NCBI GenBank assembly: GCA_041659785.1
Contig: JBAZXO010000002.1
Location: 1-53,478 of the forward strand
Direction of reading: 5' to 3'
DNA: 53,478 nucleotides
Source: Minisyncoccota bacterium
Lineage (GTDB): Bacteria; Patescibacteriota; Minisyncoccia; Phycocordibacterales; UBA9973
Below the pieces are notes generated by a model that was given only the letters and a program-made list of their open reading frames with translations, made no database searches and was not told where the DNA came from. How positions within the stretch are numbered: the first letter of the stretch is position 1; every line of letters starts with the position of its first letter. Positions 23,673 through 46,525 of the stretch are shown in pieces. Both the position numbers and the translations under genes were made by a program.

Positions 23673-24719
23673 ATGAAACCAATGTCAAGTAAAAAAGCTA
23701 AAGAAATAGACAATACCGATATTAAAAAAACAGAGAGCTCTGATGACTCTTTCTTGGATCAAACACTCCGCCCTACCCACTGGGATGAATATATTGGCCA
23801 AAAGCACATAAAAGATAATGTAAAAATTTTATTAAAGGCCGCAGAAGGACGCGGACATATTCCTGAACACATACTTTTCTATGGACCACCAGGATTAGGT
23901 AAAACAACTCTCGCGCACTTGATTGCAAAAGAAACTGGCCGACAAATGAAAATTACTTCTGGGCCGGCAATAGAAAAAGTCGGAGACCTCGCATCTATTC
24001 TTACAAACTTAGCTGCGGGTGACATTCTTTTTATAGATGAAATTCATAGACTTAATAAAATGGTTGAGGAAATACTTTATCCTGCGATGGAGTCTGGCGT
24101 TTTAGATATTATTATCGGCAAAGGTCCGTCCGCACGAACGATTCAGCTCGACTTACCACCTTTTACTTTAATTGCCGCCACCACTCGCGTAGCAATGGTA
24201 TCTTCCCCATTACGTTCTCGTTTCTCGGGTGGAGTTTTTCGATTAGAATTTTATTCAAACGAAGAAATTGCAAAAATTATAGAAAGATCTAGTAAACTTT
24301 TAAAAATAAAATTAGAAGAAGAAGCATTGAAAGAGATTGCGGAGCGAAGTCGCTTCACCCCTCGTACAGCAAACTACTTTTTAAAACGTTGTCGAGATTT
24401 TGCTCAAGTACACAAAAAAGATTTAGATAAAAAAACAGTCAAAGAAGCCTTAAACATGCTTGCAATTGATAACATTGGCCTAAACTCTTCCGACAGAAAA
24501 TTCTTAGAAATATTAATTGAAAAATTCAAAGGTGGCCCCGTAGGATTAAAAACTATTGGTGCTGCAATGTCCGAAGAAGAAGCCACTGTAGAAGAAGTAA
24601 TAGAGCCATATTTAATACAGCTTGGTCTCCTTGAACGTACGGCTCGCGGAAGAGTAGCCACGACTAAAGCATATGAGCATCTTAAAATTAGTTATAAAGT
24701 AGAAAGTGAAAAGTTGTAA
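23673..24719 (+). CDS. ruvB: Holliday junction branch-migration helicase RuvB
   Basis: LRP, GPPGLGKTTLA, TSGP, FIDEIHR, LRSRF, EPYLIQ.G...RTARGR. Confidence 0.97.
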   Translation: MKPMSSKKAKEIDNTDIKKTESSDDSFLDQTLRPTHWDEYIGQKHIKDNVKILLKAAEGRGHIPEHILFYGPPGLGKTTLAHLIAKETGRQMKITSGPAIEKVGDLASILTNLAAGDILFIDEIHRLNKMVEEILYPAMESGVLDIIIGKGPSARTIQLDLPPFTLIAATTRVAMVSSPLRSRFSGGVFRLEFYSNEEIAKIIERSSKLLKIKLEEEALKEIAERSRFTPRTANYFLKRCRDFAQVHKKDLDKKTVKEALNMLAIDNIGLNSSDRKFLEILIEKFKGGPVGLKTIGAAMSEEEATVEEVIEPYLIQLGLLERTARGRVATTKAYEHLKISYKVESEKL

Positions 24720-24786
24720 AGTAAATGCAAAATAAAAAATTTAATATATAATCTTTATAACTTTATGAACCTTATAACTTTCAACT
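24690..24786 (+). repeat. 8/9-nt repeat element, both arms, no cargo (ruvB-yebC)
   Basis: AAGT-type arm 24690-24722 overlaps ruvB end; ACTT-type arm 24753-24786 before yebC ATG. Confidence 0.8.
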
Positions 24787-33589: not shown

Positions 33590-33668
33590 GTTATCAAGTT
33601 TGTAATGTTGAAAGTTTTTAAAGTAATAATTAATCTTTATGAACTTTATAACTTTTTACTTTATAACT
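33588..33668 (+). repeat. 8/9-nt repeat element, both arms, no cargo (rpmH-rnpA)
   Basis: AAGT-type arm 33588-33624; ACTT-type arm 33635-33668. Confidence 0.8.
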
Positions 33669-34261: not shown

Positions 34262-34987
34262 ATGCTTTCAAGTATTTGGAATATCGTTCTATATCATCCA
34301 TTATTAAACGCCCTAGCTTTTTTGGTATCTATTATACCTGGTGGGGACGTTGGTATTGCTGTTATAGTCCTCACTATCCTTGTTAAAATCATCCTCTTTC
34401 CTTTATCTCAGAAATCCATAGAAAGTCAGGCGGAGATGAATATTTTGACTCCTGAGATTAATAAAATCAAAACGAGCGGTGCTTCTAAAGAAGAGCAAGC
34501 ACGTCTTACTTTCGAACTTTATAAAAAACACAACACAAATCCATTTTCAGGATGTCTTTTAGTCTTAATTCAGATCCCTGTTATCTTCGCTTTGTATTAT
34601 GTATTTCTAAAAGGAATAAAATTTGACGGAGTCTTGTACTCTTTTATTCACGTACCCGCTCATGTAAATATGATTTTCCTTGGTTTTCTTGATATAACTC
34701 AAAAGAGCTTAGTATTAGCAATTTTGGCTGGTGTTTCTCAATATCTACAAGCACACTATATGCCTAAGCCTCCCACCCCTGCCCCAGGTGCCAGTGCTTC
34801 TTTCGCTGATAGCTTTACAAAGAGTATGAGCATGCAAATGAAATATATTTTCCCATTTATTATTGCTTTTATTGCTTACAGCATTTCTGGTGCTGTCGCT
34901 TTGTATTGGATTACCAGCAATCTTTTTATGGTGGGTCAACAGATTTATGTTAAAAGAGAGAAGAATTTTAAAATAGTTATAAAGTAA
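34262..34987 (+). CDS. yidC: Membrane protein insertase YidC (short, Oxa1-like)
   Basis: LTILVKIILFPL, LYKKHNTNPFSGCL..LIQIPV, ALYWITSNLF. Confidence 0.95.
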   Translation: MLSSIWNIVLYHPLLNALAFLVSIIPGGDVGIAVIVLTILVKIILFPLSQKSIESQAEMNILTPEINKIKTSGASKEEQARLTFELYKKHNTNPFSGCLLVLIQIPVIFALYYVFLKGIKFDGVLYSFIHVPAHVNMIFLGFLDITQKSLVLAILAGVSQYLQAHYMPKPPTPAPGASASFADSFTKSMSMQMKYIFPFIIAFIAYSISGAVALYWITSNLFMVGQQIYVKREKNFKIVIK

Positions 34988-35008
34988 AAAGTTATAAAGT
35001 TCATAAAG
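34975..35008 (+). repeat. 8/9-nt repeat element, solo 5' arm (yidC-jag)
   Basis: AGTTATAAAGTAAAAAGTTATAAAGTTCATAAAG spans the yidC stop. Confidence 0.8.
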
Positions 35009-35496: not shown

Positions 35497-35511
35497 AATA
35501 TATAGGTCTAA

Positions 35512-35583
35512 ACCTCACCCCGTCTCGCAAGCGAGCCACCCCTCTCCATTTTAGAAAATGGAGAGGGGAAAAAGGGGTGAGGT
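35512..35583. repeat. Palindromic mini-element, CCCCTCTCC/GGAGAGGGG family
   Basis: CCCCTCTCCATTTT/AAAATGGAGAGGGG stem; 35516-35544 is the exact reverse complement of 50159-50187 inside rsmA. Confidence 0.85.
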
Positions 35584-35587
35584 GCAT

Positions 35588-39254: not shown

Positions 39255-39292
39255 CTACTTTATAAACTTGATAACTTTAAACTTTATAACTC
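39255..39292 (-). repeat. 8/9-nt repeat element, solo 5' arm (after virB4)
   Basis: - strand GAGTTATAAAGTTTAAAGTTATCAAGTTTATAAAGTAG. Confidence 0.8.
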
Positions 39293-39311: not shown

Positions 39312-41159
39312 TTATTTGGTGGCTGTTGCTGCCTCTGCTTGCTCTTCTTTGGCTTTTTTGTTGGATAATATTTGTGAAGGATCAGAAGTAATGATTTGGT
39401 CTTCAGTGTAAGAAGAAACAATTTTGATAGCGACGTGTTTTAATCCTGCAAAAAAGATTCCTTCTCCTAAACCAGACTCTAATAGTAAGTATTTTTCTTC
39501 ATCTGTAAGGTTGAAAGTTTTCTGTAGAAGGTCGATGGTGGTTGGAGACTGTTTCAAGAGAAGTTGGATTGAAGAGTTTGTAATTATGGGTACTCCATAT
39601 GGGGACTTCATGAAGTCCCCAGCGTCTTGAGTAATAGTAGAAAGCCCTAAATAATATTTTCGGCCTCTTTTAGCTATTGAATACAAGAAAGATGCCGTAT
39701 CTTCAGACTTCATCATCCACCATGCTTCGTCCACTACGAGTAAGCGTTTTTTTAAGTTTTTACGAATAGCATTCCATATGTAATGCATGATGATATACAT
39801 TGCTACTGGTTTAAGCTCGTCTTCCATGTCACGAACAGAGAAAACAACAAATTTTTTATTTATATCCACATTGGAAGGTCTATTTAAGAATGTTGCCCAA
39901 GAACCTCGTGTATATTTCGCGAGTCGTGCAACGACTGAGTCACTCCCCTCCATGCCTGAAAGCACCATTTCCATATCTGAGAGGAGTGGAGGTTCTATGT
40001 TAGAGAAATCTGACTCCGGAGTGATGTCTTTTATGGCATAAGTCTCTGAGATGGCTCGGTCCACCATGGAATCTTCTTCTGGAGTGAGTCCACCTAGCAT
40101 GAGTCTAAAGAGTCCGACTAGGTTAATGATGTTTGAACGAAGGACATCTTCGGCAGTTTCATCTTCGCGAGGTATCGGTAAATCGAAAGGATTTAAATGG
40201 TGGTCCGAAGAAAGTGAAATGTTAAAATATCTTCCACCGACAGCTTCAGCCAAGAATTCATATTCTCGCTCTGGGTCTATCACGATGACGTCTGTATCAA
40301 ACATGAGTGACCTTAGAATTTCTAATTTTGTAGCATAAGATTTTCCTGAACCAGACTTGGCGAAGGTTACAGAATTGTAATTTTCTAATGAAAATCTGTC
40401 GAAAATAACTAAACTAGAATTGTGTCTATTGATACCATAAAGTATTCCTTTATCAGAAGTGAGGTCAGAAGATATAAAAGGAAAGACACTCGAAAGCGGT
40501 TCCGAATTTAATTTTTGATGGATATTTAATAAGTCTGTCTCTATTGGGATGACGCTCTTGAAGCCTTCTTCTTGTTGGAAAAGGGCTGGTTTTATATAGA
40601 TGAGTTTAGATTCAAGCATTGATTTTATCTCATTTTCTATCTTGAAGAGCTCGAGATCGTTGTCTGCATATATTGTGATATAAATACCTACATCAAACAT
40701 TTTTTCTTGAGCTTGGATCAGATTATCACGGAGACCTTCTAAGTCTTGGTATGCTGTATCTAGCATTGGATCTCGGACCATACCTTTTGATTCTCGGACA
40801 TTTATCTGACTTTGAACTTCGGCGACTTTTTTCTGAAATTGCCTAAGCATTAATGATGTATCTATTGGATGAACAAAAATTGAAATATCAAAAATTTTAT
40901 CCAAGTTAATTATTGGAGAAAACCAATTATCTGTTAGAAATCTAGGATAAGATATTATGAAAAATGTTCGAGCTATTTTGTCACCAAGGTTTATAGATTT
41001 GGGGTCAATCTTGAGGGCTGAGGGGGCGATGACGTCTTGGAGTTCCAAGTTTGCAGATTCGTAAATTTTTTCTGGCAAAATAGCCAAAACAGAAGCGTTT
41101 GGCTCTTCGTTACTCTTTTTTACTCCAAATAATTTTTTTATATCATCTAAAATACTCAT
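39312..41159 (-). CDS. virB4: VirB4/TraC-like secretion ATPase
   Basis: Walker A AKSGSGKS, VIDPEREY, LNPFD, Walker B LLVVDEAW, KRGRKY..GL..ITQ. Confidence 0.88.
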   Translation of the reverse strand: MSILDDIKKLFGVKKSNEEPNASVLAILPEKIYESANLELQDVIAPSALKIDPKSINLGDKIARTFFIISYPRFLTDNWFSPIINLDKIFDISIFVHPIDTSLMLRQFQKKVAEVQSQINVRESKGMVRDPMLDTAYQDLEGLRDNLIQAQEKMFDVGIYITIYADNDLELFKIENEIKSMLESKLIYIKPALFQQEEGFKSVIPIETDLLNIHQKLNSEPLSSVFPFISSDLTSDKGILYGINRHNSSLVIFDRFSLENYNSVTFAKSGSGKSYATKLEILRSLMFDTDVIVIDPEREYEFLAEAVGGRYFNISLSSDHHLNPFDLPIPREDETAEDVLRSNIINLVGLFRLMLGGLTPEEDSMVDRAISETYAIKDITPESDFSNIEPPLLSDMEMVLSGMEGSDSVVARLAKYTRGSWATFLNRPSNVDINKKFVVFSVRDMEDELKPVAMYIIMHYIWNAIRKNLKKRLLVVDEAWWMMKSEDTASFLYSIAKRGRKYYLGLSTITQDAGDFMKSPYGVPIITNSSIQLLLKQSPTTIDLLQKTFNLTDEEKYLLLESGLGEGIFFAGLKHVAIKIVSSYTEDQIITSDPSQILSNKKAKEEQAEAATATK

Positions 41160-41167
41160 TTTTTTAT

Positions 41168-41209
41168 CTTTACTTTATAAACCTTACAACTTTACAAACT
41201 TTATAACTA
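41168..41209 (-). repeat. 8/9-nt repeat element, solo 5' arm (before virB4)
   Basis: - strand TAGTTATAAAGTTTGTAAAGTTGTAAGGTTTATAAAGTAAAG. Confidence 0.8.
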
Positions 41210-41848
41210 CTATTCCAGCTTTATTTTACCTTCTATTTCCCCTGGATTGAAAACTTTATAAAATACTTCCACCACTTCTTCAGTACCGAGCTGAGCTGAA
41301 TTTATACCACAACGACTAAGTCCTTGCTGTATTACGGCTACCCTCTCCTCTAATTGGGATCTCTTTTCTTCAAAAGCCACTTTCTTTGCTGCTTTAATTT
41401 CTGCTGAATTTTTTCTTGAGAATATTTTATCAATTATTCCAGAGTCTGATTTTAGAGCAGTGTGTGTATAAGGTACAACAATAAAAAAGCTTTTGGTCAT
41501 TATGGCGACAGTATCAGTGAAGTTTTTAATGAATTCTATATATTCTCTGGTTTGTAATTTTAGAAGAGGTTCATTTTGTACCTTGATTCTGTTCTCCAAG
41601 AGAAGTAGATATGGCCTGATGTCTAATCTTCTGGACTGGATTGATATCTGTATTGAAAAATCTAAGGTATTTAGAAAGTTTTGGAATTGCATTATTGTTG
41701 CTTTTTGTTCATCGGCAGATTTTAAAGAAAGATTTATAGAATTTGCCAATACAATTGCACGCAATTCGTCGTTTTTCAGCACGACTATTCCGTCGCGTAC
41801 TTCTTTGATTGGTATGAATTCTTGTGTTGCTTTTGCGTTTAATGCCAT
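41210..41848 (-). CDS. TraC/VirB4 N-terminal-like protein
   Basis: IKEVRDGIVV, NLSLKSADEQ, FLNTLDF.IQI.IQSR; sits between prgI-like and virB4. Confidence 0.65.
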   Translation of the reverse strand: MALNAKATQEFIPIKEVRDGIVVLKNDELRAIVLANSINLSLKSADEQKATIMQFQNFLNTLDFSIQISIQSRRLDIRPYLLLLENRIKVQNEPLLKLQTREYIEFIKNFTDTVAIMTKSFFIVVPYTHTALKSDSGIIDKIFSRKNSAEIKAAKKVAFEEKRSQLEERVAVIQQGLSRCGINSAQLGTEEVVEVFYKVFNPGEIEGKIKLE

Positions 41849-41850
41849 AC

Positions 41851-41969
41851 AGTTAGTTCATAAAGTTATAAAGTTCATAAAGTGTAAAGTTGTATTTTTT
41901 AAATTGTGAAATTGAATTTATTTGCATTGTATTTACTTGATAACATTATAACTTTTTACTTTATAACTC
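41851..41969 (-). repeat. 8/9-nt repeat element, both arms, no cargo (prgI-traC-like)
   Basis: AAGT-type arm 41933-41969 overlaps prgI stop; ACTT-type arm 41851-41892; 41852-41883 identical to 42411-42442. Confidence 0.85.
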
Positions 41970-42404
41970 GTTTACCTTTTGCTTGCTTAAATCTAACACA
42001 TCCAGACTCCAAGCCAGATCTCTTAATTTACTGCCATTTAATTCTAAGCCCCCTTCTTTCATCATTCTTATCTTGTTTATATCATTTGAGGTCCCCTGCT
42101 CACCATTTGTAGGCTTTTTTATCGTTGTATTTTTTTTCCAAATATAAAGTTTGTTTTGTATAAAATATTTGAAACCAGACTCAAGCATGTTTATAAAAGG
42201 TTTGTTGTTTGGTTTGTAAAAAGTAAGCATTAAAGAAAATCCTGCGATGGCCAAGATGGGTATGATTCCAAGGAGGAGCCCAAGCAATTTATAAACAGTA
42301 AAACACAAACCTGCTCCACCAGCTAAATAAACAAACTCCCTGAAGGTGAAAGGGCCAAAAATTTTGTCTTCTATTTCTAAAAACTGTGGAACTTTGAATT
42401 GCAT
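41961..42404 (-). CDS. PrgI family (VirB3-like) membrane protein
   Basis: MQFKVPQFLEIEDKIFGPFTFREF, two TM segments. Confidence 0.8.
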   Translation of the reverse strand: MQFKVPQFLEIEDKIFGPFTFREFVYLAGGAGLCFTVYKLLGLLLGIIPILAIAGFSLMLTFYKPNNKPFINMLESGFKYFIQNKLYIWKKNTTIKKPTNGEQGTSNDINKIRMMKEGGLELNGSKLRDLAWSLDVLDLSKQKVNEL

Positions 42405-42408
42405 GGAT

Positions 42409-42847
42409 AAGTTAGTTCATAAAGTTATAAAGTTCATAAAGTCCTTAAAGTTAAGATCCTTAATCCAAAGTTTTAATAAAACCTGATAATAACTTAGAAA
42501 TCTCTAGAGTTAAACCATACATTTTATCAAAATCTCTTTTGGGAAGGTACCTTAACTCTAAACCTAAGTTTAACATAGATCTGACTTCCCCAGCAGAGCC
42601 TTTTGATATAAAAAGAAAACTTTTTAATTCTTTGTTTGTTCTCCTCTCAAAACCTTCTGCAATATTATTCATTATTGAAACAGAGGCTCTTTCTATTTGA
42701 TTTTTGAAACTAAAATCTTTGCAAGTTTTAAATACCGTGTAAATATTAAGTGTTAATTCTTTTCCTTTTTGCCAAGATATTATTTCTTCGAATTTTTCTA
42801 TTTTCATGCTACTTTATAAACTTTACAACTTTTTACTTTATAACTAG
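42409..42847 (-). mobile_element. Putative cassette: four-helix-bundle gene bracketed by inverted 8/9-nt repeat arms
   Basis: 5' arm 42809-42847, gene 42460-42807, 3' arm 42409-42454; mobility inferred, not shown. Confidence 0.5.
42460..42807 (-). CDS. Four-helix-bundle protein (23S rRNA IVS protein / bAvd-like family)
   Basis: FEEIISWQKGKEL, QIERASVSIMNNIAEGFERRT.KE...FL.ISKGSAGE. Confidence 0.9.
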   Translation of the reverse strand: MKIEKFEEIISWQKGKELTLNIYTVFKTCKDFSFKNQIERASVSIMNNIAEGFERRTNKELKSFLFISKGSAGEVRSMLNLGLELRYLPKRDFDKMYGLTLEISKLLSGFIKTLD

Positions 42848-42859
42848 ATTAAGTCCTTC

Positions 42860-43483
42860 CTAATCCGGACTTAATCTGTATGGATCTCCTTTTGGAGGAT
42901 AAGTGGAAGGAGCGGGTTTAGGGGGCTGGGGAATAGTATCGTTCTGGTTACTCATTTTTGTAAGATTTTCTAAAGAGTGTTCTGTGGTTACTGTAGGTGT
43001 TTGGAAAGTACTGTTTAATTTTTGTGCTAATATTGGATGTACTTCTTCTCCCTTTTTTAATTCTAATTTTTCTGGAATGATTTCTATACCAGCTGTGTTT
43101 AATACATGTGTATTTTTCTTCTTTTCCTCCTCTGTGTCGTGTTCAGTTGTATCTTTCTTGGATGTATTGTCATACATTTGCATCATTTTCTCTTTGATTT
43201 CTTTTAGAATTTTTTCATTTACAGCATTTACTATTAAGCGTGTTTTCTCATCTCCCAATTTCATGCTGTTTTTGATAGATTCTTCAAACTTGTCTGGATG
43301 TGTAAAACCAAACATGACCATATGTGTCTCTAGAGAAAGTTGCCCCATTTGCTCCACGTTCAAACCCTGTGTCTGACCTATTTCAATAATATTGTCATCC
43401 ACATTTACTCCCATGATTGCCCATTTTAAATCTTCTGGGAGATCGTCAAACTTTTTTTGTATTTCTTCTAATGTTATTTCCAT
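42860..43483 (-). CDS. Hypothetical cytoplasmic protein
   Basis: 207 aa; helical N-terminus, low-complexity C-terminus ending DPYR; in the T4SS-like operon. Confidence 0.7.
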   Translation of the reverse strand: MEITLEEIQKKFDDLPEDLKWAIMGVNVDDNIIEIGQTQGLNVEQMGQLSLETHMVMFGFTHPDKFEESIKNSMKLGDEKTRLIVNAVNEKILKEIKEKMMQMYDNTSKKDTTEHDTEEEKKKNTHVLNTAGIEIIPEKLELKKGEEVHPILAQKLNSTFQTPTVTTEHSLENLTKMSNQNDTIPQPPKPAPSTYPPKGDPYRLSPD

Positions 43484-43516
43484 AAATTTATTATTAAGCT
43501 AATAATTTTTTAATGA

Positions 43517-46500
43517 TTAAGTATGTCCATGTGCCGCTGGTGGTGTATGTGCTGATTCTGTTGGTTTTTCATGAGGTTTTTCTTCTTCATGCTCTTCTTC
43601 TGTTTTATGTGCTGTATTTTCTTTTGGTGCTTCATGACTCTTCTTGTCTTCTTTGTGTTTTGTTCCTCCCCCCTCTTGTTCTTTCTCAAGTGCCGATTTG
43701 TCTTTTCCTAAATCAAGATTTTCCTTTTTAAGATTATGAAGATCTTTTTCTGCAGTTTTTAGTTTAGTTAATTCAAATTTTCTTTCGCCATTTTTTATTG
43801 TTTCATTAAATAAACCTACAACCCTTGGATCATCTTTCCCTGCTTTTTCTTGTTCAACAAGTCTTTTTAGTTCTATTTCGTTCATCTTTTCAGCAAATGA
43901 TATTTTTGTTAACTCCGATTCTATTTTTCCTGTATTTACAGTAAATCCCTTGTCTTTATCTCCAGTTACTAATCCATTTCCTGTGTCTTTTCCTGACGCA
44001 TCTTTTTCAATAAATTTATCTAATGATTCATGGAGTTTGTCTATTGATTTTATGTTTTCCGCTATCCTATCTGTTATTCCAGACATTTTCTTAAAGCCCT
44101 TTTCAAGTTCCTTGGTGAACTTAGATTCACCAGCTGCTTCTTTCATAGCATAATCTCCAGCACTTATACCACCTACACCCATACCACCCGTTACTCCCGT
44201 TGCTGTTCCCAAGGTTCCCATACCCATTGCTCCAGCAGCTACACCACCTACTGCTCCGCCAGTAAGAACAGCGGCTGTTCCACCGACGGCCATCTTTGTC
44301 ATCATAACTCTCTTGTGGTTTACATCGTTTGCTATTTTTGAATCATATACCATCTCTGCAAGTTTAGCTGGATCATTTTTATATGCTTCATTGTATCTTT
44401 TCCTATATGCTCCATCTTTACTAAAGTTATTTTTATCAATGATTTCACCAGTAAGATTTACGGTTGAATATGCTAGTGCCCCCAACAAACTATGGGCACC
44501 CACAAGAATATCATCACGAAATTCTTCCATTCTGGAACGGTTTAATTCGTCAGCTTTTGTGTAATATTCACCTTTGCTGTTTCTTACATTATGTTTCTTA
44601 GACCACTCCTCGACTTCCTTATCCGATTTGCCCGTTTTGTAAAGTTTCGATTCTTCTTTTAGAGCTTCAGATTTTCTTTCTCCAGCTCCTTTGAATCCAC
44701 CTTCTGTATTAGGCCTCAACCCTAATACACTTCTAGAGAAATCTAATCCAGATGCCTTAGACAAGGCTTTTCCTGCGCCCGATTTTCCAAAATCAAAAGA
44801 AGCTTTTTGTCCATAGTCTGCAGCCTTGAGAGTCGTTCTTGCCAAGAACCCACCAATACCTTTTGATTCAACTCCTGCCTTCTTTAGATTTTCACTGCTT
44901 GCTACAGTAGATGCTATTTTACCAATTGTTCCTGTTGCGAGCATTGCTGTTCCGCCCGTCACTGCTCCTAATGCAAGAGATGCACCAGTTTTTGCAGCAC
45001 CAAGTATTACCTCTCCAACTTTACCAGAGCTCTTTACTGCGTACATCATTGCTTTGTAAAGAAGGATATTAACTAAAATTAATGGTAAAAAGACCCCTAA
45101 ATACATTTTTATTGCTCCCGCTGGATCATCTGTACCACTAGCTTTTGGTATGAGTTCAGAAAATATATTTGAATGAAGTAATAAAAATATAAAATACAAA
45201 AAGAACATAAAAATTGGAGCCATAAATGCTGTTTTCAGCAAACGTTTTAACCAAGAATCCCAACCTATATATTCTAATCCTCCTAAAATTGGGACAGAGG
45301 AAGACATAAAAGCAAAAGGAGAAAAAATAATTAAAAACCAAAGCTCAACTAATCTAACTAAGAAAGCAAAACCTGCTACCCAAAGTACAAACACAGTATA
45401 GTACATTAATGATCCAGCCAAAATAGAAATTGCAATCAACATTCCAGCAGGTACAGTAGGCTCTTGTTTGACAAGATGACCGTCTATATATGTTTTTCTA
45501 AGTTCACTAAAGAAAGGTTCAGTTAGCGTTGTGGTAGGATTAAAACCACCAACTAAACCACCCGCTATATCTGTTTCGTTTCCTGTAAGTGCTACATATT
45601 TTCTTTGGTTTCCTTGTGCGTCTTTTGTATAAACACTTAATTTGTTATAAAAAGTTAAAGCTAAAATATTCGAAGCATCGATGATTACTTGAGTAAAGAA
45701 CATAGAAAAGTTTATGAGGAGTGCCACGACGATAACCTTCGCTATCATCTTTTTAACATCAGAACCACCAAGTCCAATAATTAATTTGATTGCAATATAA
45801 AGTAAGACAAGGATAAAGAAAAGATTTGAAAGGTCTCGAACGACTCCCCATGCTTGAGAAATAAAAGAATTTGTGAACAATCCACTACCCAATGAAATAA
45901 ACACTAAGATGTTAAAAAAATAAGCTGCAGTATAAAGGAAAAAAGCTGGTACGGTATAGAACATACCATAAGAAATTTGTATAGCACACCCAGGCCAGAT
46001 ACTAGAACCAGTACCTCCAGCAAAAAATACTCCGAATCCACACTGTTGTTTATTAATTTCTACTTCGAATGGCGTTGTCCCTCCTGGGGAAGCTGGAGCT
46101 ACTTGTCCCGTTGGTGTTGTCCCTGATGTTCCCGCTGGTATTTGTGTTACCGCCCCACCAACACCACCTGCAGTCCATGTTCCACCTCCATTACTTCCTG
46201 CCAATGTTTGACACTCAACAAAGGAATTAACTACCTGTGTTGGTGTTCCTTGTAAATTATAATTACAAGTTCCATTTCCTGTTGGTCCTGCTGGTGGTGG
46301 GGTGGTTGCTGGTATTTGTGTTACTGTTCCATCACGTGCAGTCCACGTTCCACCACCATTACTTCCTGCCGATTTTTGACAATCAGTTAAGTAAGCAGCT
46401 TGTTGAGTTTGCCCATATTTACATATTCCAGATAGATTTTGTTGTGCATTAATTTTACTTATCGGACTAAAAAGCCCGATAAGTGCAATGAATATTATTA

Positions 46501-46525
46501 TGTAAGGCAGAATTTTTCTAATCAT
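43517..46525 (-). CDS. VirB6/TrbL-like polytopic membrane protein
   Basis: Signal peptide; WGVVRDLSN, LLINFSMFF, RLVELWFLIIFSPFAF TM blocks; Gly-rich cytoplasmic tail; duplicated Cys module at N-terminus. Confidence 0.75.
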   Translation of the reverse strand: MIRKILPYIIIFIALIGLFSPISKINAQQNLSGICKYGQTQQAAYLTDCQKSAGSNGGGTWTARDGTVTQIPATTPPPAGPTGNGTCNYNLQGTPTQVVNSFVECQTLAGSNGGGTWTAGGVGGAVTQIPAGTSGTTPTGQVAPASPGGTTPFEVEINKQQCGFGVFFAGGTGSSIWPGCAIQISYGMFYTVPAFFLYTAAYFFNILVFISLGSGLFTNSFISQAWGVVRDLSNLFFILVLLYIAIKLIIGLGGSDVKKMIAKVIVVALLINFSMFFTQVIIDASNILALTFYNKLSVYTKDAQGNQRKYVALTGNETDIAGGLVGGFNPTTTLTEPFFSELRKTYIDGHLVKQEPTVPAGMLIAISILAGSLMYYTVFVLWVAGFAFLVRLVELWFLIIFSPFAFMSSSVPILGGLEYIGWDSWLKRLLKTAFMAPIFMFFLYFIFLLLHSNIFSELIPKASGTDDPAGAIKMYLGVFLPLILVNILLYKAMMYAVKSSGKVGEVILGAAKTGASLALGAVTGGTAMLATGTIGKIASTVASSENLKKAGVESKGIGGFLARTTLKAADYGQKASFDFGKSGAGKALSKASGLDFSRSVLGLRPNTEGGFKGAGERKSEALKEESKLYKTGKSDKEVEEWSKKHNVRNSKGEYYTKADELNRSRMEEFRDDILVGAHSLLGALAYSTVNLTGEIIDKNNFSKDGAYRKRYNEAYKNDPAKLAEMVYDSKIANDVNHKRVMMTKMAVGGTAAVLTGGAVGGVAAGAMGMGTLGTATGVTGGMGVGGISAGDYAMKEAAGESKFTKELEKGFKKMSGITDRIAENIKSIDKLHESLDKFIEKDASGKDTGNGLVTGDKDKGFTVNTGKIESELTKISFAEKMNEIELKRLVEQEKAGKDDPRVVGLFNETIKNGERKFELTKLKTAEKDLHNLKKENLDLGKDKSALEKEQEGGGTKHKEDKKSHEAPKENTAHKTEEEHEEEKPHEKPTESAHTPPAAHGHT

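Follow-up and report, generated by a model that had tools for sequence, protein, structure and literature searches.

Organization of the cassette between gene X and prgI

The window (the whole stretch of 53,478 nucleotides analysed here) includes an origin-proximal operon encoding a T4SS-like system. Between two cistrons of this operon, gene X and prgI, lies a 455-nt segment in the sense orientation that runs from the stop codon of gene X to the start of prgI (Table 1). The segment, hereafter called the cassette, consists of a short gene encoding a four-helix-bundle (4HB) protein, held between two arrays of short units. Arm A, before the gene, reads ctAGTtataaAGTaaaaAGTtgtaaAGTttataaAGT (42845–42811, minus strand), with AAAGT in four of its five units, while arm B, after the gene, reads ACTttaaggACTttatgaACTttataACTttatgaACT (42451–42414, minus strand) and has its last base 9 nt before the prgI ATG at 42404. 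The arrays claimed in an earlier note on this DNA, at 42809–42847 and 42409–42454, are real, and their coordinates were correct to a few bases.

Gene X had no match in Pfam. Searches gave neither a terminator on the minus strand nor more promoter-like sites than expected, and no Rfam family matched in a search of 41000–43600. The cassette contains no transposase, integrase or nuclease. No conserved direct repeat that might represent a target duplication was visible at the borders of seven type-1 cassettes, but these borders are AT-rich and short.

Table 1. Features of the gene X–prgI junction and further repeat arrays in the window.
Feature	Position	Strand	Description
Gene X	42860..43483	-	207 aa; hypervariable, with conserved C-terminal DPYRxxPx motif; cassette begins right after the stop codon (42862-42860)
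Whole cassette	42405..42859	-	1-25 nt in relatives without the gene; closest relative (L009) alignable again from the prgI ATG onward, with no offset; type-1 cassettes alignable from arm A to arm B
Arm A	42811..42845	-	AAAGT type: five units ending AGT, repeated every 7-9 nt, the last one ending 3 nt ahead of the ATG
Four-helix-bundle gene, type 1	42460..42807	-	115 aa; start ATG 42807, stop 42462-42460
Arm B	42414..42451	-	Five units beginning ACT (ACTTT type), inverted complement of arm A
prgI (VirB3-like)	41961..42404	-	Directly downstream of the cassette; PF12666, E 1.7e-8
Arms-only pair	41855..41975	-	AAAGT array and ACTTT array separated by a loop of ~40 nt; in the gap from prgI to the TraC-like gene
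Single AAAGT-type array	41172..41206	-	Gap preceding the VirB4-like gene; orthologous gap in L009 28 nt without array
Single AAAGT-type array	39257..39289	-	Gap preceding a 329-aa gene
AAAGT-type array	34977..35000	+	Between yidC and jag (R3H)
Inverted array pair	33590..33666		Between dnaA and rnpA; hairpin -16.6 kcal/mol, z -3.3
Inverted array pair	24692..24777		Between ruvB and yebC; hairpin -13.5 kcal/mol, z -1.9

The four-helix-bundle protein

The assignment of the gene to TIGR02436/PF05635, made earlier from the letters alone, was borne out by both profiles, which the 115-aa product matched above the curated cut-offs: PF05635 with E 4e-30 and 104.6 bits (cut-off 33.8), and TIGR02436 with 103.6 bits (cut-off 24). 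All four types of the protein described below scored 103–125 bits against the latter. The four-helix-bundle family was the only match of the protein in Pfam and NCBIfam, with no IS200/IS605-like tyrosine (HUH) transposase among the hits. Sequence relatives in the PDB are 2GSC (E 8e-9) and 2RLD, with five chains each, and a pentamer of the solved relative Xcc0516 is cited in PMC10053308. The anti-phage defence models of PADLOC gave no match for three of the protein types, and a search of viral contigs for types 1 and 2a brought up no near relatives.

Intact ORFs of 115–126 aa were present in all 22 loci, and the dN/dS of the 4HB gene was 0.04–0.17; the protein is under strong purifying selection. 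The share of identical codons at conserved residues was 0.62 for the 4HB gene versus 0.46 for prgI, the traC-like gene and virB4, and was higher in 20 of 21 pairs, so that the silent sites of the 4HB gene are less diverged than those of the flanking genes. This low divergence could be caused by constraint on a short gene, rather than by a younger age.

Predicted folding of the transcript

A repeat search identified inverted segments of 22 nt within the arms (42421–42442 and 42811–42832) that are 91% complementary. The minimum free energy RNA fold of 42400–42860 (minus strand) had an energy of −99.9 kcal/mol (z −2.96), which was equalled by none of 100 shuffles, and the predicted structure is closed by the arm–arm stem, with a duplex energy of −31.8 kcal/mol. 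The arms are predicted to be able to pair in the transcript, as had been proposed. When the order of the units in arm B was shuffled, the pairing between the arms became no weaker, giving no sign of selection on the exact register of the stem; this unit-permutation test neither favours nor rules out an RNA stem.

Occupied and empty sites among relatives

An unbiased scan seeded with VirB4 yielded 71 species loci from Nomurabacteria with the same T4SS-like operon. The cassette was present at the junction of gene X and prgI in 16 of these, and most of the others had a gap of 1–25 nt. Other filled sites were found in the same operon, between prgI and the traC-like gene in L021, and before the VirB6-like gene in L070. 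The closest relative, L009, with a VirB4 that is 96% identical, has neither the gene nor any array, and its gaps measure 1–28 nt, compared to 50–112 nt in the window. In a relative from the same groundwater sample, the sequence corresponding to position 42404 is joined to that corresponding to 42879, with 37 other letters between them. The comparison of presence and absence at the prgI-upstream junction, as suggested in the earlier note, shows a gene that is not fixed and that is scattered on the VirB4 tree. We had also considered that the gene was a fixed component of the operon: three look-ups with the exact protein all returned the order gene X–4HB–prgI, with identities that tracked those of VirB4. 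This picture was overturned by the VirB4-seeded scan.

Four types of the 4HB protein occur at this one junction. Identities are 19–39% between the major types and 66–95% within a type, and an alignment across all types proved too divergent to search with as a pattern. Each type has one inverted arm unit (AAAGT/ACTTT, TAGGC/GCCTA, TAGCT/AGCTA or AATTACG/CGTAATT). Between subtypes T2a and T2b, which are ~60% identical, every unit has changed in concert (TAGGC vs TAGCT). On the VirB4 tree, the distribution of the cassette types required 19 changes, compared to a mean of 19.4 after shuffling, equivalent to random scatter. If only its well-supported branches are considered, the four types still need a minimum of 5, 5, 3 and 3 changes. 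The comparison of these loci shows gain, loss or replacement of the cassette over the time in which species diverge.

Flanks of family members at other junctions and in other phyla

Relatives of type 1 occupy dozens of other operon junctions, including secY|adk, wzm|wzt and murT|gatD. Metagenomic relatives (59–83% identical) did not adjoin prgI in 65 of the 69 cases in which the downstream side was covered, and the 142 proteins encoded by their neighbours fell into 103 clusters. Where both neighbours were known, they were co-directional in 56 of 62 relatives. In a metagenome sample of 70 members, AAGT arrays were found upstream of the gene in 50 and ACTT arrays downstream in 39, while the opposite polarity was seen in only 1 and 3, respectively. 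These frequencies (71% and 56%) compare with 1.2% and 0.4% in background windows. Of the plasmid-borne members from other phyla, 8 of 8 were flanked on either side by arrays of a unit of their own, with 3–15 units per array rather than a fixed five. Flanking arrays like those noticed in the window are also carried by other family members: by all four types, by members of the metagenome sample and by the members from other phyla.

Arrays outside the cassette

Strict arrays, defined as at least three AAAGT/ACTTT cores at a spacing of 7–10 nt, numbered 6 in the window versus 0.045 in shuffled sequences. The units of the cassette arms also fill seven other intergenic gaps of the window, and the idea that the arms form a pair private to this gene had to be abandoned. 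The ACTTT arm of the arms-only pair downstream of prgI is nearly identical to arm B, and the predicted fold of this pair is weak (−12.8 kcal/mol, z −0.17), as are the AU-rich type-1 arms-only hairpins generally (z −0.2 to −3.3). By eye, the loops of the arms-only hairpins bear no likeness to the gene. Many arrays are lone arms with no partner nearby. The arrays of the window are confined to 24.7–42.8 kb, and six of them are no further than 3.6 kb from the gene.

Across the loci, arrays outside the cassette tended to match the type of the resident gene. We counted 33 such cognate arrays, compared to a mean of 11.7 when the type labels were shuffled, and none of 20,000 shuffles reached 33. The density of cognate arrays was ~1.1–1.3 per 10 kb for types 1, 2a and 2b and 0.6 for type 3, while loci with a non-cognate gene or no gene had 0–0.5 arrays per 10 kb, mostly no more than 0.15, so that loci without a gene had almost no arrays. 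A comparison of independent pairs drawn from the tree gave 5.0 in which the presence of arrays went the same way and 0.3 in which it went the opposite way (p ~0.06). Some array was present in 12 of 62 loci without the gene (L035, L051 and L064 among them), and 8 of 20 typed loci had no arrays beyond the flanks. The arrays had five units in 42 of 63 cases, four in 14 and six in 5, and 62 of the 63 were intergenic, at a median distance of 14 nt before start codons. Their orientation relative to the next gene was 31 one way and 26 the other, which would be awkward for a reader of single-stranded RNA.

The co-variation of gene type and array unit suggests that the protein probably recognises the repeats. 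It would, however, arise trivially if the cassette were inherited whole and the arrays were descendants of its arms, and is therefore not proof of binding. Two other roles for the units were considered. A promoter or Shine-Dalgarno function of AAAGT was rejected, since the other types use TAGGC, TAGCT and AATTACG, the arrays occur in either orientation, and promoter-like sites are not in excess. A DNA-uptake sequence was ruled out because the unit changes with the 4HB type.

Discussion

We interpret the segment between gene X and prgI as an evolutionarily mobile, insertable cassette resembling the intervening sequences (IVSs) of rRNA, with a protein that probably recognises its own arrays and arms that would pair and may be cut by RNase III. 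We put the probability of this reading at roughly 0.6. The cassette would be co-transcribed with the operon, and the arms would pair into a long stem that RNase III could cut, by analogy with Coxiella and Leptospira. Cleavage of this kind would set the 4HB message free and part the cistrons on either side of it. The protein, if a pentamer like its relative Xcc0516, might recognise the repeat units at about one per protomer, and through this recognition might help to keep or spread the arrays.

The earlier note had suggested that the stem-plus-cargo design of the ORF-bearing rRNA IVS recurs here inside a protein-coding operon. This is supported by our analysis: other family members have such flanks, the gene is not fixed across relatives, and the arms close the predicted fold. 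As for the suggestion of a repeat-guided mobile unit, evolutionary mobility is well supported by the comparison of loci, but no transposase, integrase or nuclease is encoded in the cassette.

Four other explanations were weighed. In the first, nothing is mobile: the host would have domesticated the protein as a regulator that binds RNA or DNA, controls its own expression along with the T4SS-like operon and a few housekeeping genes, and binds at the arrays just before start codons. We consider this unlikely. The intergenic position of the arrays shortly before start codons would suit such a regulator, but with genomes as compact as these, whatever is inserted between genes ends up near a start codon, and the arrays lie either way relative to the gene that would be regulated. 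The concentration of arrays in the gaps of the T4SS operon and the strong purifying selection on the protein also fit a host function, and MacGregor's paper proposes a post-transcriptional regulator for the TAACTGA arrays (PMC4679880). Against this stand the absence of gene and arrays from most close relatives with the same operon, the random scatter of the types on the VirB4 tree, and the occurrence of the same gene type in dozens of unrelated operons.

Alternatively, the element might act through RNA alone, with the stem offering RNase III a site to cut or insulating or stabilising the mRNA, and the ORF a passenger that does not touch the repeats. A passenger ORF was suggested for Coxiella by Warrier et al.; there, S23p apparently goes unproduced and its reading frame is in decay, yet the stem is cut by RNase III (PMC4990558). 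Arms-only pairs, which the window contains and the metagenome shows at high depth, would also be expected of a functional stem. In our loci, however, the ORF is intact and constrained throughout, a switch of protein subtype is accompanied by a concerted change of the units, many single arms have no nearby partner, and the pairing signal specific to the register is absent. This makes an RNA-only element quite improbable.

The two remaining explanations have very little probability. The AAAGT arrays might be an independent REP- or SSR-like repeat with the gene between two of them by coincidence, as might be suggested by the further seven gaps of the window that contain such arrays, in part at a long distance from the gene; this is already contradicted by the match of type and unit (each of the four protein types has its own unit on both sides in a fixed polarity), by the label shuffles, by the rarity of arrays in background windows, and by the flanks of the members from other phyla. 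Equally remote is an orphan Avd left by a diversity-generating retroelement (DGR) that lost its reverse transcriptase and template/variable repeats: PF05635 is homologous to Avd (PMC10053308) and one type-2b protein has a weak Avd match of 23.8 bits, but the Avd equivalog NF033474 (cut-off 80 bits) was not reached and not matched at all by the window's protein, T4SS genes are neighbours in every locus, the repeats are arrays of 7–9 nt with no template/variable pair, and the cassette measures 455 nt.

A broader reading can be put forward tentatively, although we would not bet on it at even odds. TIGR02436 pentamers might read short periodic repeats in a sequence-specific way, with each protomer taking about one unit, and gene plus arrays might be a self-propagating system of protein and site that colonises transcribed spacers. 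The 23S rRNA IVS, the operon cassettes and the heptamer arrays known as orphans from Xanthomonas, cyanobacteria and Beggiatoaceae would then be one system, similar to REPIN-RAYT but lacking a known transposase fold.

The very large family PF05635/TIGR02436 was discovered in 1993 in the 23S rRNA of Leptospira, and to our knowledge no function has since been assigned to it, the DGR relative Avd apart; we know of none either for the short heptamer-type arrays (STRR, TAACTGA, GGGNATC), which have been equally orphan for decades. The locus described here is an unusually clean natural experiment, a single junction in a conserved operon that is empty in most species and otherwise holds one of four types, each with its own inverted unit and with matching arrays in nearby gaps, and it makes the idea that the protein reads its own repeats directly testable with cognate versus non-cognate arrays. 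If true, the family would gain a function, rRNA intervening sequences would find their explanation as just one of many places where the element lands, minimal mobile or selfish elements of a new kind would be established for operons, and the protein might give a small programmable repeat-binding scaffold. For CPR biology, it is relevant that an element that may cut or restructure mRNA sits within a T4SS-like operon; a PrgI homolog of a T4SS-like system was reported to be essential for epibiotic growth in one cultured strain (10.1101/2025.01.22.634366).

Comparison with known systems

We found no description in the literature of a protein-plus-repeat element of this kind. The Avd protein of DGRs (bAvd, PDB 4DWL) has a homologous fold, and is described in the literature as a pentamer that binds nucleic acid and reverse transcriptase; unlike a DGR, the window has no reverse transcriptase or TR/VR repeats, and its protein does not reach the Avd equivalog score.

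In REPIN-RAYT systems, reportedly described by Bertels and Rainey, a short repeat likewise stands in inverted copies on either side of one gene, and further copies are spread over the intergenic regions of that genome. Gene type and repeat type correspond, and the repeats are missing from genomes in which the gene is missing. However, RAYT is a tyrosine transposase of the IS200/IS605 type, whereas the window gene encodes a 115-aa helical bundle with no known catalytic motif. The repeats of the window are tandem arrays of 7–9 nt rather than single palindromes, and its gene is patchy and found at many sites.

Dispersed short arrays are known from several groups; the STRR repeats of cyanobacteria are said to have been described by Mazel et al. 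in 1990. The arrays of the window share with them units of 7–9 nt in few copies, an intergenic position often just before starts, frequent inverted pairs (70–75 in Xanthomonas), and lineage-specific units with a patchy distribution. GGGNATC arrays in Xanthomonas and Nostoc, with a preference for four units, are covered in Rehm et al. 2015 (PMC4692102). TAACTGA arrays in Beggiatoaceae, Cyanobacteria and Bacteroidetes are covered in MacGregor 2015, where a repeat-binding protein is suggested as a possible mobile element (PMC4679880). Among the terms looked for in these two papers, the four-helix-bundle family is named in neither. The window arrays differ in being tied to a specific type of gene that is flanked by two of them.

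The ORF-bearing 23S rRNA IVS of Leptospira, reportedly described by Ralph and McClelland in 1993, belongs to a group that the cassette resembles in layout: the ORF in the loop encodes the same protein family and is enclosed by terminal inverted repeats that can pair into a long stem, and tandem short repeats (here, five units of 7–9 nt) occupy the arm before the start codon. The distribution is patchy and horizontally acquired, and present or past mobility has been suggested in print. In the IVS of Coxiella burnetii (Warrier et al. 2016, PMC4990558), three to four GACAGAT heptamers precede the S23p ORF, and the stem, of 28 bp, is cleaved internally by RNase III; excision by RNase III is known for Coxiella, whereas for the window element it is a prediction by analogy. 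The window element also lies between protein-coding cistrons rather than in an rRNA helix, and its protein is clearly under purifying selection. Finally, its arm units are dispersed as arrays in other gene gaps, and several protein types with different units alternate at one and the same site.

Cassette anatomy and operon setting

The four-helix-bundle (4HB) gene of the window (35% G+C) lies in a minus-strand T4SS-like operon, which also encodes further exported proteins and a pilin/transglycosylase. The names carried by near-identical proteins and loci assign the window to a Candidatus Nomurabacteria/Paceibacterota bacterium. The operon is adjoined by dnaA, rnpA, yidC and jag, in agreement with the origin-proximal position reported for the Patescibacteria T4SS (10.1101/2025.01.22.634366). 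By profile search, the 4HB protein is a clear member of TIGR02436/PF05635; its sequence relatives in the PDB are 2GSC and 2RLD, with five chains each. The window contains no second 4HB gene. The earlier note had placed the gene between two inverted short-repeat arrays, which was confirmed by arm A, the AAAGT-type array upstream, and arm B, the inverted ACTTT-type array downstream.

Features of the T4SS-like operon, the cassette and the array-bearing gaps of the window
Feature	Position	Strand	Remarks
VirB6-like gene	43517-46525	-	T4SS-like operon
Gene X	42860-43483	-	T4SS-like operon
4HB gene	42460-42807	-	T4SS-like operon
prgI	41961-42404	-	T4SS-like operon
TraC-like gene	41210-41848	-	T4SS-like operon
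VirB4-like gene	39312-41159	-	T4SS-like operon
Arm A	42845-42811	-	five units ending AGT, 4/5 AAAGT; 14 nt after gene X stop
4HB ORF		-	115 codons; ATG 3 nt after arm A
Arm B	42451-42414	-	five units starting ACT; 8 nt after 4HB ORF, 9 nt before prgI ATG
Perfect hairpin	42846-42877		11 bp, 10-nt loop
GC-rich palindromic element	35497-35587		gap between jag and 464-aa gene
ruvB–yebC gap			array or inverted pair
dnaA–rnpA gap			array or inverted pair
yidC–jag gap			array or inverted pair
Before 329-aa gene			array or inverted pair
Before virB4			array or inverted pair
prgI–TraC-like gap			arms-only pair

The perfect hairpin (AGATTAAGTCC / GGACTTAATCT) covers the stop codon of gene X directly outside arm A, and its outer half is similar to an inverted arm-B unit (AAGGACTTAAT versus AAGGACTTTAT). 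Among species with 88–95% identical VirB4, identity is as low as 26–40% for gene X and the VirB6-like gene, and of gene X the C-terminal DPYRxxPx end alone is kept; both seem to be rapidly evolving components of the machine that are presumably exposed.

A repeat search found 42421-42442 and 42811-42832 to be 91% complementary over 22 nt. That the arms could pair in the transcript, as had also been proposed, is borne out by the predicted minimum free energy structure of a 461-nt transcript segment, which is closed by an arm–arm stem (z = −2.96). The arm duplex was no weaker when the unit order of arm B was permuted: the arms owe their pairing to being built from a single repeated unit, and the permutation gave no extra signal of selection for one particular stem. 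Arms-only hairpins of the window's unit have a weak predicted fold. The cassette region had no Rfam match, no minus-strand terminator and no excess of promoter-like sites, which is compatible with co-transcription. A search of RNA runs found none that contains this stretch.

Filled and empty sites among relatives

The order X–4HB–PrgI was found in all three close orthologues looked up, with identities that paralleled those of VirB4, suggesting that the 4HB gene was a fixed component of the operon. This was overturned by an unbiased VirB4-seeded scan, taking one genome per species, which gave 80 loci with VirB4 82–95% identical. Searched by tblastn and with an HMM built from the matches, 16 of the 71 loci that covered the X–prgI junction had the gene there; in most others, the X–prgI gap was 1–25 nt. 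The comparison of this junction suggested in the earlier note thus showed that the gene is not fixed. One further copy lay between prgI and the TraC-like gene (L021), and another ahead of the VirB6-like gene (L070). In the closest relative (L009, VirB4 96%) both the gene and all arrays are missing, and five orthologous gaps measure 1–28 nt there versus 50–112 nt in the window. In the window's own groundwater sample, a relative's contig joins 42404 to 42879 via 37 unrelated letters, and arms-only hairpins are abundant in the contigs.

Protein types and arm units

The 22 distinct 4HB genes were sorted by identity into four types, all members of TIGR02436. Type 1, that of the window, is 71–95% identical within itself, plus one outlier at 55–60%; type 2b is about 60% identical to type 2a, and type 3 about 25% to type 1. 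Each type has a unit of its own, which forms inverted arrays on both sides of the gene; written as upstream/downstream, the units are TTATAAAGT/ACTTTATAA for type 1, TAGGCnn/nnGCCTA for type 2a, TAGCTnn/nnAGCTA for type 2b and AATTACG/CGTAATT for type 3. In three type-3 loci (L053, L059 and L042) the upstream AATTACG array is open in the gene's own frame, reading ...ITNYEL..., and might be translated, which makes the true start codon uncertain.

The types are distributed over the VirB4 tree (83 rows) as if by chance, needing 19 changes versus a shuffled mean of 19.4; the well-supported (starred) branches make at least 5 changes necessary for type 1, 5 for type 2a, 3 for type 2b and 3 for type 3.

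The units also recur away from the gene. In the window, ACTTTATAA with at most one mismatch has 87 copies versus 45.9 expected, the exact copies being concentrated in a few gene gaps, and there are 6 strict arrays versus 0.045 in shuffles; the arms are thus not private to the 4HB gene. (The word AACTTTATAA has been described in the T4SS gaps of another genome.) The GC-rich palindromic element (ccctctccattttctaaaatggagagggg ... gcttgcgagacggggtgagg) is unlike these AT-rich arrays; a similar palindrome lies just upstream of prgI in L060, a relative's locus. In two groundwater metagenomes, the summed contig depth over arrays was 8–45 times the local baseline (42355-42508, 41816-41892 and 42817-42893), and one arms-only hairpin, whose 21-nt loop is GC-rich (ACGGACTACTGTAACCGTCCG), was very abundant.

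Leaving out 200 nt on each side of the 4HB gene, arrays cognate to the local type occurred at ≈1.1–1.3 per 10 kb for types 1, 2a and 2b and 0.6 for type 3, versus 0–0.5, mostly ≤0.15, for non-cognate units and for all units in gene-less loci. When type labels were shuffled among the 20 typed loci, the mean was 11.7 cognate arrays versus 33 observed, and none of 20,000 shuffles reached 33. In phylogenetically independent pairs, array and gene presence agreed in 5.0 and disagreed in 0.3 (p ≈ 0.06, with nine pairs as the limit). Some array was present in 12 of 62 gene-less loci, and 8 of the 20 typed loci had none beyond the flanks. The relative's locus L064, which begins at prgI so that the cassette site is cut off, has arrays of three units (AAAGT twice, GCCTA twice, AGCTA once); its genome may hold several 4HB types.

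Array cores of 3 nt were used to count units in 63 arrays: five units were found in 42, four in 14 and six in 5. The typical array has four full units and one degenerate terminal unit, always at the same end. All arrays but one (62/63) are intergenic; their median distance to the next start codon is 14 nt, and they occur in both orientations relative to the next gene (31 versus 26). The five-unit mode equals the chain number of 2GSC, and Xcc0516, a solved relative, is a pentamer according to a title cited in PMC10053308. Arrays in other phyla have other lengths (plasmid-borne members; also PMC4692102), so the match between five units and a pentamer is only a lead.

Landing sites and arm polarity

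Scanning metagenomes with the window's protein yielded 80 loci at 59–83% identity. The downstream side is covered in 69, of which only 4 are next to prgI. The 142 neighbour proteins fell into 103 clusters, and both neighbours, where known, were co-directional with the 4HB gene in 56 of 62 cases. Among the named junctions are secY–adk, wzm–wzt, murT–gatD-like, a GDP-mannose dehydratase gene, obg, purH and macB/ftsX. Flanking inverted arrays, for which the earlier note had proposed a test around other 4HB genes, were found: AAGT arrays of at least three units lay upstream in 50 of 70 loci (opposite polarity, 1/70; background windows, 1.2%) and ACTT arrays downstream in 39 of 70 (3/70; 0.4%).

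Plasmid-borne members from Nostoc, Riemerella, Anabaena, Geminocystis, Picosynechococcus, Calothrix, Pseudanabaena and Azospirillum had own-unit arrays on both sides in all eight cases, inverted in seven. The exception, on a Pseudanabaena galeata plasmid (L095:890-1470), has long direct arrays, AAAAGCT ×15 upstream and AAAAGCC ×10 downstream. On the plasmids of Anabaena sp. 90 (L091), Picosynechococcus PCC 7003 (L093) and P. galeata, 4HB genes with own-unit arrays lie inside CRISPR-cas operons (cas6–cas4 twice, cas10–cmr3), which may explain the family's listing as CRISPR-associated. The member on Azospirillum lipoferum plasmid AZO_p2 (L096:890-1450) has GGACAGA-type inverted arms (duplex −94 kcal/mol) in a stretch without a listed gene. 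As the collection in question does not list RNA genes, this member may be a genuine rRNA intervening sequence (IVS). In viral contigs, no close relatives of type 1 or type 2a were found, and three 4HB types gave no PADLOC match.

Selection and age

Within types, dN/dS of the 4HB gene is 0.04–0.17, so the protein must matter in some way. Of the codons at conserved residues, a share of 0.62 is identical in the 4HB gene. The same species pairs give 0.46 for prgI, the TraC-like gene and virB4, and the 4HB gene has the higher value in 20 of 21 pairs. By NG86, dS is 0.5–1.1 in pairs with the window and near saturation in several others, the flanking genes ranging from 1.3 to saturation. Gene X is just 26–34% identical among type-1 loci, so the cassette and its flanks do not travel together. 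Taken as a whole, these data point to a cassette younger than the species splits, the alternative being extra constraint on a short gene.

Comparison with known systems

The main proposal of the earlier note, a stem-plus-cargo design inside a protein-coding operon, is supported. The mechanism, comprising protein binding to the arrays, stem processing and the route of movement, is what we infer. In the Coxiella IVS, terminal inverted repeats make up a 28-bp stem in which RNase III cuts, and three to four GACAGAT heptamers directly precede the S23p start; Warrier et al. cite an older idea that the IVS was once a mobile element whose ORF served mobility (PMC4990558). A CPR rRNA study noted 23S_rRNA_IVP ORFs in rRNA insertions. 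Rehm et al. described intergenic GGGNATC arrays, which number in the hundreds in Xanthomonas and Nostoc and include 70–75 inverted pairs, in a text that mentions neither "four helix" nor "XCC0516" (PMC4692102). For TAACTGA arrays of 2–6 units before start codons, MacGregor suggested an unidentified binding protein, maybe itself the mobile element (PMC4679880). Our literature search found no paper linking the TIGR02436/PF05635 family to cognate arrays outside rRNA. New here are the series of filled and empty sites at one junction, where four protein types alternate, the match of protein type to dispersed arrays, with the types scattered over the tree, the arm polarity fixed over dozens of landing sites, the silent-site signal of the 4HB gene and the sharp five-unit mode of the arrays.
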